In this document: piece after piece, positions 30,689 through 33,501 of the stretch | How the letters are laid out: each line of letters opens with the position of its first letter | Position numbering within the stretch: position 1 is the stretch's first letter | Virus record (IMG/VR): IMGVR_UViG_2687453522_000001 | Direction: 5' to 3' (one strand) | Source of the DNA: a virus | Taxonomy: Duplodnaviria > Heunggongvirae > Uroviricota > Caudoviricetes | DNA: 64,000 nucleotides | Notes under the pieces: model-generated | What the model saw: the letters and a program-made list of their open reading frames with translations, nothing else | Databases searched by the model: none | Told to the model about the DNA's origin: nothing | Translations under genes and position numbers: made by a program

Positions 30689-30770
30689 GCACAACAGGTA
30701 AGGGCGCTGGTGTGATTAACCAGATGAACGAGAAGGGGCCATCTGTTGGTCAGCGTCCTTTCCTGTTGCG
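30689..30770 (+). repeat. Structured repeat element, copy A
   Basis: Starts gcacaacaggtaagggcg and ends cctttcctgttgcg, sharing termini with four other copies in 30.7-33.4 kb. Confidence 0.45.
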
Positions 30771-30973
30771 TCTTCTTTTCAGCGTAACAGCGGTGCTTAA
30801 CAGCACTTTGGGTACAGTTCCACGAATTTACGGGTATATCCCGTCATGCTGAAAGCGCTAATCACGCTGGAAGCCAGGGTTATGCATCCCCTGTTACCGA
30901 ATTGCAGCCAGGGCGCGGTGCGCCGAAAAGCATACGGAGGTGGAAGCCCTCGCCGGAGACGTACCCGGCAAGT

Positions 30974-31049
30974 GATGGTGTAGCTCAGCGGTTAGAGCGG
31001 TTGACTGTTAATCAACGGGTCGATGGTTCAAATCCATCCACCATCGCCA
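30974..31049 (+). tRNA. tRNA-Asn (anticodon GTT)
   Basis: Manual cloverleaf: acceptor GATGGTG/CACCATC, D arm GCTC-AGCGGTTA-GAGC, anticodon loop CTGTTAA, T arm GATGG-TTCAAAT-CCATC, encoded CCA. Confidence 0.85.
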
Positions 31050-31051
31050 AT

Positions 31052-31127
31052 GCCGGTTTAGCTCAGTTGGTAGAGCGCCTGCCTTGTAAGCAGGATGTCA
31101 GCGGTTCGAGTCCGTTAATCGGCACCA
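31052..31127 (+). tRNA. tRNA-Thr (anticodon TGT)
   Basis: Manual cloverleaf: acceptor GCCGGTT/AATCGGC, D arm GCTC-AGTTGGTA-GAGC, anticodon loop CTTGTAA, T loop TTCGAGT, encoded CCA; 2 nt after tRNA-Asn. Confidence 0.85.
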
Positions 31128-31233
31128 GCACAACAGGTAAGGGTATTTTGCGACGTCGGAGATCGCCGAGCTTGGCAGAGGGTTCGAATCCCTACGAAGT
31201 ACCCTTACCGTTGTGATGAATGCGCAGGCTGAT
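31128..31233 (+). repeat. Structured repeat element, copy B (contains a tRNA T-arm-like GGTTCGAATCC)
   Basis: cacaacaggtaagggta...tacccttaccgttgtgatgaatgcgcaggctgatg; inverted repeat ggtaagggta/tacccttacc; no acceptor stem pairing found. Confidence 0.5.
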
Positions 31234-31400
31234 GCGCGAAAGACATTGCAGCTATTGCGGAAAAGAGCTGTTCGGCGGGGCAATTAAACGCCCGTGAGAG
31301 TCTGAAATAACCGCAAGCCGGAGATCAGCACCGGTCATCACAACACAACAGGTTGTACTGCACCCATTTTGTTGGACGATGAAATGGAATAGCCCCTAAT

Positions 31401-31922
31401 ATGTCAAAGCCAAAATACCCTTTTGAAAAGCGCCTTGAAGTCGTGAATCACTACTTCACAACTGATGATGGTTACAGGATCATCTCGGCACGTTTTGGTG
31501 TCCCCCGAACCCAGGTCAGGACATGGGTTGCCCTCTATGAAAAACATGGAGAAAAAGGTTTAATTCCCAAACCTAAAGGCGTTAGTGCTGATCCAGAGTT
31601 GCGTATTAAGGTCGTGAAAGCTGTGATCGAGCAGCACATGTCCCTTAATCAGGCTGCTGCTCACTTTATGCTTGCTGGTAGTGGTTCTGTAGCCAGGTGG
31701 CTGAAGGTCTATGAAGAGCGCGGAGAAGCTGGTTTACGCGCGCTCAAGATTGGCACCAAAAGAAACATTGCAATATCAGTTGATCCAGAAAAAGCGGCAT
31801 CAGCATTGGAGCTGTCAAAAGACCGACGCATTGAGGATCTTGAAAGGCAAGTTCGATTTCTTGAAACGCGGCTTATGTATCTAAAAAAGCTGAAAGCCTT
31901 AGCTCATCCCACGAAAAAGTGA
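31401..31922 (+). CDS. insJ: IS150 transposase OrfA (HTH DNA-binding)
   Basis: 173-aa ORF starting MSKPKYPFEKRLEVVNHYFTTDDGYR; AAAAAAG slippery site near its 3' end. Confidence 0.9.
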   Translation: MSKPKYPFEKRLEVVNHYFTTDDGYRIISARFGVPRTQVRTWVALYEKHGEKGLIPKPKGVSADPELRIKVVKAVIEQHMSLNQAAAHFMLAGSGSVARWLKVYEERGEAGLRALKIGTKRNIAISVDPEKAASALELSKDRRIEDLERQVRFLETRLMYLKKLKALAHPTKK

Positions 31923-32770
31923 AAGTACTCAACGAGCTAAGGCAGTTTTATCCTCTTGATGAGCTTCTCAGGGCTGCGGAGATACCGCGCAGTACGTTTT
32001 ATTATCATCTAAAGGCTCTCAGCAAGCCTGACAAGTATGCGGACGTTAAAAAGCGTATTAGTGAGATTTATCACGAGAATAGAGGCCGATACGGATACCG
32101 TAGGGTAACGCTGTCTCTTCATCGAGAAGGGAAACAGATTAACCATAAAGCTGTTCAGCGCCTGATGGGAACCCTCTCACTTAAAGCAGCGATTAAGGTC
32201 AAGCGATACCGCTCTTACAGAGGAGAGGTAGGGCAAACCGCCCCTAATGTTCTCCAAAGAGATTTCAAGGCTACGCGGCCAAACGAGAAGTGGGTTACCG
32301 ATGTTACTGAATTTGCAGTCAATGGGCGCAAGCTGTATTTGTCTCCAGTAATAGATCTCTTCAACAACGAAGTTATTTCTTACAGCCTTTCGGAAAGACC
32401 AGTGATGAACATGGTTGAGAATATGCTCGATCAGGCATTCAAAAAGCTTAATCCTCACGAGCATCCTGTTCTGCACTCTGACCAGGGATGGCAGTATCGT
32501 ATGAGAAGATATCAAAATATCCTTAAAGAACATGGTATTAAACAAAGCATGTCCAGAAAAGGCAATTGTCTGGATAATGCTGTGGTGGAGTGTTTCTTTG
32601 GAACCTTAAAGTCGGAGTGTTTTTATCTTGATGAGTTCAGTAATATAAGCGAACTGAAGGATGCTGTTACGGAATATATTGAATACTACAACAGCAGAAG
32701 AATTAGCCTGAAATTAAAAGGTCTGACTCCAATTGAATATCGGAATCAGACCTATATGCCTCGTGTTTAA
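31919..32770 (+). CDS. insK: IS150 transposase OrfB (DDE catalytic domain), expressed by -1 frameshift with OrfA
   Basis: 283-aa ORF in the -1 frame relative to OrfA with rve/DDE-type sequence (WVTDVTEF...HSDQGWQY...[15 protein letters not shown]). Confidence 0.9.
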
Positions 32771-32796
32771 CTGTCCAACTTTTTGGGGTCAGTACA

Positions 32797-32870
32797 GGTA
32801 AGGGCATTCTCCCTTATGGGGCTTGGCTTAAATGCATCGAGTGCTCTTACCGTTGTGATGAAGTGCAGCT
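32797..32870 (+). repeat. Structured repeat element, copy C (right part; left 13 bp lie at 31341-31353 before IS150)
   Basis: Joining 31341-31353 to 32797 onward reconstitutes caacacaacaggtaagggcattctcc...gctcttaccgttgtgatgaagtgcag. Confidence 0.55.
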
Positions 32871-32995
32871 CTTTGAAGCAACCAGAAGATAAGCATCTGG
32901 CTTCACAACATAAACCGCAGGAACGACCAATAAACGGTAGTCCGTATGGAGAACACCCCGTTGAGGAAGAGGCCTGGCCGGAACCGTAACCGGCA

Positions 32996-33108
32996 CTACA
33001 ACGTTGAGAACACTGGCGTAACGGGGTCATATCCCAATCTACGAATAAATGTTGCGTTGCAGCGTGACAACCAGTGTTCTCAACATTGTGGTGAATGCAC
33101 AGGCTGAT
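32996..33108 (+). repeat. Structured repeat element, copy D
   Basis: 14-bp perfect inverted repeat gttgagaacactgg/ccagtgttctcaac around a 53-nt loop; ends attgtggtgaatgcacaggctgatg. Confidence 0.5.
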
Positions 33109-33272
33109 GTGCCGCAACTACAGTAGTGCGCGCTTTGCGGGGCTTGCTACAACCCTGTGTCGGAGTTCAGCACCGACCATCACAGTTTGATTCTCTGGCA
33201 TGAGCATAACGCTGAAATAAGTCCAGCCTGGTGCGGCCCGATCACCCGCCGTTAGCTCCACGAAACGGAGCA

Positions 33273-33362
33273 CGTAACAGGTAAGAGCATTCTCCTGTAA
33301 CGGGTTCATATCCCAATCTACAGGTCCACCAAGAATGCTCTTTCCGTTGCGGTGAATGCGGC
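33273..33362 (+). repeat. Structured repeat element, copy E
   Basis: cgtaacaggtaagagcattctcc...agaatgctctttccgttgcggtgaatgcgg; stem aagagcattct pairs with its complement; loop shares gggttcatatcccaatctac with copy D. Confidence 0.5.
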
Positions 33363-33501
33363 TAAGCGCACGCGGGGAAATGGTTATATCAGTCCATTCA
33401 TTTCTCCTTGTTTCCCCGTCCACGGTGGATAACCAGCCAAAGGACACCGGGAGGCACCCGGCACCGCAGCTTTTTTATTCGTTAAATAATGGAGTGAGAG
33501 G

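Follow-up and report, generated by a model that had tools for sequence, protein, structure and literature searches.

A family of modular structured RNA cassettes in the tRNA-containing ban operon leader of a P1-like phage

Phage-encoded structured small RNAs (sRNAs) are already known in general, as are several structured signals that act within long phage transcripts. Signals for RNase III include the early R sites of T7, the hairpin of the lambda N leader and the stem-loop upstream of the transfer RNA (tRNA) cluster of T4, and the boxA core reads TGCTCTTTAACAA in rrn operons and CGCTCTTA in lambda. The put RNAs of phage HK022 are about 70 nt long and consist of two stem-loops (PMC9378689). 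The non-coding RNA STnc1310, located downstream of the ST64B CI repressor, is reported to be expressed on induction (Owen et al., PMC7067206), and STnc100, found downstream of stx2, has been detected in vesicles of Shiga-toxin strains (PMC12370729). STnc100 and PasD are related prophage sRNAs with a common origin and different seed regions (bioRxiv 10.64898/2026.05.13.724894). This report compares with these systems a set of repeats that surrounds the tRNA genes in the ban operon leader of a P1-like phage (IMG/VR record IMGVR_UViG_2687453522_000001, a stretch of 64,000 nt referred to as the window). Each of these repeats belongs to a modular cassette of structured non-coding RNA, built from two parts, that is common to many enterobacterial phages.

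P1 is among the best-studied phages, yet the annotation of its ban operon places two hypothetical genes, on the wrong strand, over 1.3 kb where the evidence described here points to a cluster of conserved structured RNAs. The long hairpin (module A), the main fold of the second module (type B-I) with its loop-loop pairing, the layout of scaffold plus insert, the link to phage tRNA genes and the inserts that resemble host RNAs appear to be undescribed in the literature searched, in which neither six conserved strings nor a study of P1 ban-operon RNA nor a description of tRNA-like leaders was found.

Architecture and occurrence of the cassettes

A preliminary description of this DNA had proposed at least five hairpin-forming elements with conserved ends around the tRNA genes, and five (A1 to A5) were found, all on the + strand. 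They lie in the interval then given, 30689-33365, although a complete IS150 of 1443 bp inside it splits the third element. The 5' motif ACAACAGGTAAGRG occurs four times in the 64 kb at up to two mismatches, in each case here and on the + strand (0.46 expected; none of 100 shuffles reaches four); the 3' motif also occurs four times and only here, but this count alone is not significant at three mismatches, where 2.8 occurrences are expected. The origin of the stems is different from that first proposed: instead of a separate internal inverted repeat, the conserved ends themselves pair into a long stem, and the conserved 3' tail GTTGTGATGAATGCRCAGGCTGATG, taken at first for the end of the hairpin element, forms the 5' half of another and larger module, B, and finds its partner strand 50-130 nt downstream. 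The layout in two modules, the IS150, a near-match to STnc100 and the spread beyond P1-like phages were absent from that account. After tRNA-Thr the order is A2-B2-A3-B3, a spacer, A4-B4, a second spacer and H0-A5-B5, H0 being a small additional hairpin. The elements are listed below with folding free energies (dG) and z-scores (z) for A, and with scores of covariance model R1, described further on, for B.

30690..30770, + strand: A1 hairpin, stem of about 20 bp, no B module behind it (dG -37.9, z -4.7; match to the 5' motif)
31129..31216, + strand: A2 hairpin, beginning 1 nt past the CCA of tRNA-Thr (dG -41.4, z -5.5)
31195..31346, + strand: B2 module, type B-I, closing helix P1 GTTGTGATGA/TCATCACAAC (R1 102.8 bits, E 2e-21)
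31344..31353, + strand: A3 hairpin, left portion of the 5' arm, cut by IS150 (sequence and reconstruction without the insertion sequence)
32797..32857, + strand: A3 hairpin, remaining part (reconstructed A3: dG -32.5, z -5.8)
32837..32911, + strand: B3 module, a minimal degenerate B without insert (R1 31.4 bits, E 1.6e-5)
32994..33093, + strand: A4 hairpin, 23-bp stem, inner hairpin with ACGGGGTCATATCCCAATC (inverted repeat; dG -47.9, z -8.3)
33070..33188, + strand: B4 module, type B-I (R1 86.2 bits, E 1e-17)
33255..33271, + strand: H0, small hairpin GCTCC-ACGAAAC-GGAGC directly upstream of A5 (read from the sequence)
33272..33351, + strand: A5 hairpin, inner hairpin with ACGGGTTCATATCCCAATC (dG -33.9, z -8.1)
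33331..33480, + strand: B5 module, type B-II (STnc100-like), with a T-run at its end in this phage (R1 51.1 bits, E 7e-10; STnc100 37.8 bits)

Module A is an irregular stem of about 20 bp that encloses a variable insert and keeps a bulged A and a U.U mismatch at fixed places. The five hairpins of the window fold with z between -4.7 and -8.3, none of 200 shuffles folding equally well, and in each the + strand fold is 3-10 kcal/mol more stable than that of the minus strand. Relatives were gathered from IMG/VR by means of a 16-mer at the junction of the two modules, which yielded 45 non-redundant A elements with outer stems of 16-24 pairs (mean 19.4). These stems contain 797 Watson-Crick and 75 G.U pairs versus 7 single A.C or C.A mismatches, with multiple pair types at most positions; such an excess of G.U over A.C, together with the compensatory changes, argues for selection on the RNA fold. 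The closing helix of the following B begins with the same six bases (GTTGTG) that end the A 3' arm, so that the A and B folds compete for them. The shared loop motif reported earlier, GGG(G/T)TCATATCCCAATCTAC, is present at 33018-33042 and 33297-33321, and the T-arm-like GGTTCGAATCC sits in A2, whose insert has a T-arm (AGGGTTCGAATCCCT) stacked on the 3' arm; this T-arm was detected in the identical copy of contig L062. The A3 element is uninterrupted in the leaders of RCS47 and P7 when these are aligned. Hairpins of the H0 type, with a conserved ACGAAAC loop and covarying stems (GCUCC/GGAGC, GCCAC/GUGGC), also stand upstream of many A hairpins in unrelated viral contigs, including L016, L020, L044, L131 and L136, and H0 may be a third module of the cassette.

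Module B is closed by a 9-bp helix, P1, in which GTTGTG(A/G)TGA pairs with TCA(T/C)CACAAC 50-130 nt downstream. Inside this helix are a 3-nt linker, hairpin P2 (GCRCA-GGCTGA-TGYGC), a variable stretch (P3) and hairpin P4 (GYCGG-AGWTCAGCA-CCGRC), which abuts the 3' strand of P1, and the P2 loop can pair with that of P4 (GCUGA with UCAGC). In an alignment of 28 diverse copies 95% of the cells in the core are paired, a figure that drops to 29-55% when the partners are slid by 1-3 columns. The core shows eight double-sided pair changes versus 1.2 in shuffles (0 of 500), one of them a change of one loop-loop pair from G-C to A-U; this covariation is real but sparse, the core being highly conserved and its 5' half fixed by the 16-mer search pattern. 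The fold is described as cloverleaf-like and not as a four-way junction, since the insert as a true fourth arm was rejected, the inserts being no more structured than shuffles.

When applied to the 64-kb window, R1, a covariance model of B, finds four B copies, all on the + strand and all in this leader, and otherwise a single minus-strand match of 10.6 bits (E 0.72). It finds 97 copies in 100 viral contigs, most of which carry the cassette, recovers the corresponding copies in other P1-like phages, all oriented with transcription, and finds zero B copies in 79 bacterial loci with chance 16-mer matches, which served as a negative control. A genome-wide scan with the junction 16-mer gave almost nothing but chance hits in bacteria unrelated to the hosts of these phages, and R1 confirmed only a single P1-like contig, from E. 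coli. A family of small structured RNAs had been one of the options offered at first, and it is borne out by the stability of the folds, their strand asymmetry, the compensatory changes and a covariance model that is specific; the check suggested with it, covariance-model and fold analysis, gave a conserved fold and compensatory changes for A and for B.

The junction block occurs in lambdoid and other temperate phages of Escherichia, Shigella, Salmonella, Klebsiella and Cronobacter. In SfV, ST64B, mEp460 and Stx2a_1447 the cassette is found past the cI gene, with the early-left promoter region on one side and an intrinsic terminator on the other, and after that terminator another A-type hairpin with apical ACGGGNTCATAWCCCAATC stands just ahead of the first early gene; in phiES15 the cassette lies between an early open reading frame (ORF) and kil. 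The apical motif ACGGGNTCATAWCCCAATC is common to the inserts of A4 and A5 and to this hairpin of the SfV/ST64B type (L003 3196-3286, with equivalents in L011 and L012). About one fifth of the viral contigs scanned for tRNAs carry tRNA genes on the same strand (Ser, Thr, Arg, Met), mostly near the cassette, and B ends 4-10 nt before tRNA-Ser in several of them. The lytic siphovirus Bas81 has an RNA-only unit, lying antisense among protein genes, in which A and A-B are followed by tRNA-Ser, tRNA-Arg and a terminator. The association of cassettes with tRNA genes thus recurs in unrelated phages (P1-like phages, lambdoid contigs with Ser/Thr/Arg/Met clusters right behind B, and Bas81).

Comparison with known RNA families and signals

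At gathering thresholds Rfam finds only the three tRNAs in this region of the window. STnc100 (RF02076) matches B5 with 37.8 bits, below its gathering score of 47, over model positions 31-147 of 206, and the equivalents of B5 in P1, P7, D6, SJ46, RCS47 and Ro157c2YLVW score 33.4-43.0 bits over the same positions; B2, B3 and B4 give zero STnc100 matches at permissive thresholds. B5 borders this uncharacterised family as a sub-threshold relative, whereas neither A nor the main B type matches any family of Rfam. Over positions 31-147 the Rfam consensus structure of STnc100 agrees with the B structure, which is supported on 28 sequences: inside a closing helix (GGTG.../...CACC) a GAAT linker leads to a 5' hairpin, the middle part is variable, and a 3' hairpin (CCGGGAGGCACCCGG) comes to lie against the helix as P4 does in B. 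The A hairpin is absent from STnc100, and the matches in P1-like phages cover part of the 206-position model. Members of STnc100 lie, like the cassettes, in non-coding stretches of phage operons, as in Fels-1, where three tandem copies of this type occupy the interval between Q and holin (L010 2420-2560, 2815-2950 and 3955-4110), two of them followed by terminators; R1 misses the Fels-1 copies. Each Fels-1 copy is preceded by a stretch containing TAAACCA, a possible promoter. The cassettes link the orphan family STnc100, and PasD with it, to a wider superfamily in which hypervariable inserts are carried on a defined scaffold.

The likeness to tRNA is of another kind. As in tRNA, the closing helix of module B leads through a short linker to a first hairpin, a variable arm comes next, the last hairpin abuts the 3' strand, and the first and last loops interact; some A inserts carry true T-arm sequences. 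Unlike in tRNA, the loops of B pair by 5-6 Watson-Crick pairs, and there is neither an anticodon arm nor a CCA end. ARAGORN and Rfam (RF00005, at E up to 10) report only the three true tRNAs and recognise none among the A and B elements. YrlA (RF02553, gathering score 69) gives a single match of 25.6 bits that covers the tRNA-Asn/tRNA-Thr pair and not a repeat.

The A hairpins resemble phage RNase III signals in that their stems measure about 20 bp, are made irregular by an internal mismatch or bulge and stand between the units of a long phage transcript, and the signal of T4 also heads a tRNA cluster. The 16-24 pairs of the A outer stems agree with the length of RNase III substrates, about two helical turns. 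Module A has no sequence relationship with the signals of T7, lambda and T4; it differs from them in enclosing long variable inserts and in having a 3' arm that overlaps the 5' strand of the next module.

The inserts vary far more than the scaffold. Those of B range from 11 to 142 nt, are unrelated between copies and are not unusually structured (z about -2 to +1), while highly conserved blocks of 28-29 nt border them. In four contigs the B insert is a 47-nt copy of positions 237-283 (helix 11) of the small-subunit (16S) ribosomal RNA (rRNA), with Rfam E of 2e-5 to 4e-7:

L106, 4600-4646: 16S helix 11-like B insert
L116, 624-670: 16S helix 11-like B insert
L131, 3971-4017: 16S helix 11-like B insert
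L130, 1953-1999: 16S helix 11-like B insert

These copies show compensatory differences relative to the E. coli 16S sequence. T-arm-like hairpins occur in 7 of 43 non-redundant A inserts versus 0.3 in shuffles, A2 of the window among them, and mostly lie directly against the A 3' arm, as at the 3' end of a tRNA or of a transfer-messenger RNA (tmRNA).

Two further candidates were set aside: HnrS is an unrelated 66-nt sRNA of a late region (PMC13502914), and readings of short motifs as C/D-box, ERIC, CsrB-like or splice-site-like elements were dropped on inspection alone.

Expression, processing and alternative explanations

The window belongs to a P1-like phage whose repeat region is, one insertion excepted, 99.3-99.7% identical to those of RCS47, vB_EcoM-813R1 and several P1 isolates. 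The P1 reference record gives the order as the end of dmt, Oban (a bivalent C1 operator) with the promoters P1ban/P2ban, a "dicF-like region", tRNA-Asn, tRNA-Thr, plp and upl (small ORFs on the opposite strand), tciABC, tRNA-Ile2 and ban. The corresponding features of the window, apart from the repeats, are the following.

30289..30318, + strand: bivalent C1 operator and Pban promoter (ATTGCTCTAATAAATTTATTAGTGTAAT, identical to the annotated Oban and P1ban/P2ban of P1)
30416..30508, + strand: leader hairpin and strong intrinsic terminator (stem 30482-30501, then T7; terminator scan and P1 annotation)
30974..31127, + strand: tRNA-Asn(GTT) and tRNA-Thr(TGT) (ARAGORN and Rfam)
31354..32796, + strand: IS150, outside the family, disrupting A3 (1443 bp, 100% identical to annotated IS150 copies)

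With Oban and Pban upstream, and with the tRNAs described in the P7 record as under the control of the Oban operator, the repeats fall in the untranslated part of the ban operon, transcribed on the + strand; the P1 and P7 annotations thus lead us to infer that cassettes and tRNAs are transcribed as one C1-repressed unit. The terminator, the only strong one on the + strand of the leader, lies about 180 nt past Pban and upstream of every module. The "dicF-like region" of P1 corresponds to the leader at about 30416-30517 (30416-30508 in the window), outside the repeats, and the Rfam DicF model gives zero matches at E up to 10 within 30400-33700. The output of Pban may be mainly a short leader RNA, in which case the tRNAs and ban would depend on read-through.

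The reading preferred here, to which a probability of about 0.42 is assigned, is that the cassettes are stable small RNAs processed by host RNases, built on a conserved scaffold with variable inserts. Pban, when not repressed by C1, would transcribe the cassettes with tRNA-Asn and tRNA-Thr and then tRNA-Ile2 and ban; host RNase III would cut this long untranslated transcript in the A stems and RNase P would cut it at the 5' ends of the tRNAs, and the A and B folds would serve as nuclease-resistant scaffolds that release or present the variable inserts as stable small RNAs. We infer the cuts by RNase III from the length and shape of the stems only, and the stability of the products and the role of the inserts are likewise predictions of this scheme. 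The position of the ST64B cassette fits that of STnc1310, and the two may be the same RNA. The family raises questions on the maturation of phage tRNA operons, the purpose of the abundant prophage "sRNAs" of pathogenic E. coli and Salmonella, and a possible decoy role of inserts that copy pieces of host tRNA or rRNA.

Several observations weigh against processed small RNAs, among them the sparseness of the covariation in B noted above. Knock-down by CRISPR interference of plp, upl and trnT, which overlap the elements, causes no plaque defect in P1 (PMC10695390) and so lends no support to a role in lytic growth on the laboratory host. The terminator ahead of all the modules makes expression dependent on read-through. 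A terminator-like site follows 10 of 80 B copies (about 12%) versus 9 of 300 control windows (3%), counted with a simple detector that probably misses long-loop types such as those of SfV and mEp460; with so low a share most copies would not be free-standing sRNA genes, although the comparison does not tell the competing readings apart.

A bolder extension of the same idea, which we regard as speculative and improbable, is a phage-wide RNA display system: a conserved scaffold that locks itself (the A stem together with the B cloverleaf and its kissing loops), co-expressed with phage tRNAs, would show swappable inserts that mimic host RNAs and thereby decoy or sponge up RNA-binding proteins, modification enzymes or the RNA-targeting defences of the host. 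The candidate mimics, recognised by sequence, are tRNA or tmRNA T-arm/acceptor ends and 16S rRNA helix 11. Were it true, the tRNA region of P1-like, lambdoid and some lytic phages would be an RNA-based counter-defence island.

The main rival of the small RNA reading is that the cassettes are cis-acting transcription elements of the boxA/nut or put kind, which, by acting on RNA polymerase or bringing in NusB/NusE, would carry the long untranslated tRNA-containing transcript past Rho and intrinsic terminators, possibly also aiding formation of the long-range B closing helix as in rRNA operons; we consider this unlikely. The commonest A 3' arm reads (C/G)AGTGCTCTTTCCGTTGTGG, and a GCTCTT(T/A) core, followed as in boxA/nut sites by a GT-rich stretch and a small hairpin in the leaders of long operons, untranslated RNA operons included, is present in 22 of the 45 non-redundant copies, A3 (GTGCTCTTAC) and A5 (ATGCTCTTTC) of the window among them, but absent from A1, A2 and A4. 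The U.U mismatch at the boxA position is kept unrepaired in 25 of the 45 stems, which suggests a constraint on sequence besides pairing; yet NusB/NusE bind single-stranded boxA, whereas this stretch is paired inside a stem of -25 to -48 kcal/mol, and the half of the copies that lack the core keep the pairing by compensatory changes. The hairpin, moreover, is 14 nt away and not about 8-10, and its loop, unlike that of boxB, pairs with another loop instead of forming a GNRA-like pentaloop, with no N protein evident. In agreement with antitermination, the cassette of SfV, ST64B, mEp460 and Stx2a_1447 stands before the terminator that precedes the early genes, and the first early-left ORFs of SfV, ST64B, mEp460 and phiES15 include no recognisable N-like protein (PHROGs returns only families of unknown function), a setting like that of the put elements of HK022, which are structured cis RNAs just past the early-left promoter of a lambdoid phage without an N-type antiterminator. 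Unlike put, however, the cassettes are also found upstream of terminators that evidently work: the RNA-only unit of Bas81 and copies in Fels-1 end in terminators that a processive antiterminator would defeat, and in the window the only strong + strand terminator precedes all the modules. R1 has no match at E up to 1 in HK022 24000-31500, a stretch that, judging by the map, should include PL, PR and the put sites, the latter not having been located within it.

The remaining explanations fit the data less well. That the repeats are functionless, decaying remnants of phage tRNA gene cassettes and their flanks, persisting as neutral recombining repeats, is quite improbable, even though T-arm-like hairpins are enriched in A inserts and mostly placed against the 3' arm, the elements adjoin tRNA genes, the breakpoints of P1-like indels fall inside the repeats, and plp, upl and trnT are non-essential. 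The preliminary description had also considered degenerate tRNA relics, and the T-arm-like hairpins speak for that part of it; but no element scores as a tRNA, and what is conserved across distant phages, with compensatory changes and G.U in excess of A.C, is the arms and the B core, independently of the inserts, most copies having no tRNA-like insert and many loci no nearby tRNA gene. Processing or recombination signals had been suggested as well. Breakpoints inside repeats are indeed seen among P1-like phages, so that recombination appears as a consequence; nothing marks it as the function. Sequences acting at the DNA level as recombination sites or boundaries for the swapping of segments between phages would account for the conserved 28-29 nt blocks around unrelated inserts and for a B2 that is 98% identical between this phage and otherwise unrelated lambdoid phages, but no recombinase is associated with the elements, and the strand asymmetry (a + strand fold that is always the more stable, G.U far above A.C), the orientation of all copies with transcription and the conserved loop-loop complementarity are properties of an RNA and not of a duplex DNA site, which makes such a role very improbable. 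Hardly credible is the view that the region encodes Plp and Upl, with the repeats incidental. The minus-strand frames exist (32767-33117, 116 aa with a TTG start; 33118-33447, 109 aa with a GTG start) and carry the names plp and upl in the P1 and RCS47 annotations; however, no Pfam family is matched by the versions of P1 or of the window, the frames contain large indels between relatives and overlie G.U-containing folds of the + strand, plp as annotated in P1 is antisense to tRNA-Thr, and RefSeq P1-like E. coli plasmids, among the rows listed, have no feature under the A2-B2 stretch. The plp and upl annotations are probably spurious and do not denote genes, and annotation pipelines should cease to call them.

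Variation among P1-like phages and neighbouring features

Seven P1-like leaders were aligned, and they differ by whole modules with breakpoints within the repeats; the comparison of indels took in P1, P7, D6, SJ46, RCS47 and Ro157c2YLVW. In P1, SJ46 and D6 the A2 insert is fused to the A3 3' arm, without B2, and in P7 and Ro157c2YLVW A3 stands immediately behind tRNA-Thr. The stretch separating the two copies of the loop motif is deleted in SJ46. P7 and D6 carry a different B4 insert, a different A5 and an extra tRNA-Ser/Sec-like gene right after B4. This gene (L007 2674-2758 in P7, L008 2606-2690 in D6) is annotated in D6 as a tRNA-Ser with a UGA anticodon, and its two copies score 46.6 and 43.1 bits with the Rfam tRNA-Sec model, just under the threshold of 47. 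P1-based vectors that keep the region and those that delete it may differ in RNA output.

The identity of B2 with the lambdoid copies (98%) points, on sequence, to recent exchange. The C4 antisense RNA of P1 and an isrK-like RNA are also found in the window at 8481-8690, and likewise in mEp460 and Stx2a_1447 (L003 470-658, L004 415-603); their occurrence in the same lambdoid phages that share B2 suggests that P1-like and lambdoid phages have exchanged RNA modules repeatedly.

The IS150 is inserted within the 5' arm of A3, with a 3-bp target duplication (GGT at 31351-31353 and 32797-32799), and its presence in the ban-operon leader is probably polar on everything downstream. Beyond the repeats, where P1 has tciABC, the window encodes at 33502-34546 a 78-aa membrane protein and an SPFH/Band 7 protein (Pfam E 1e-30), the latter named "putative serine protease" in RCS47 and Ro157c2YLVW.

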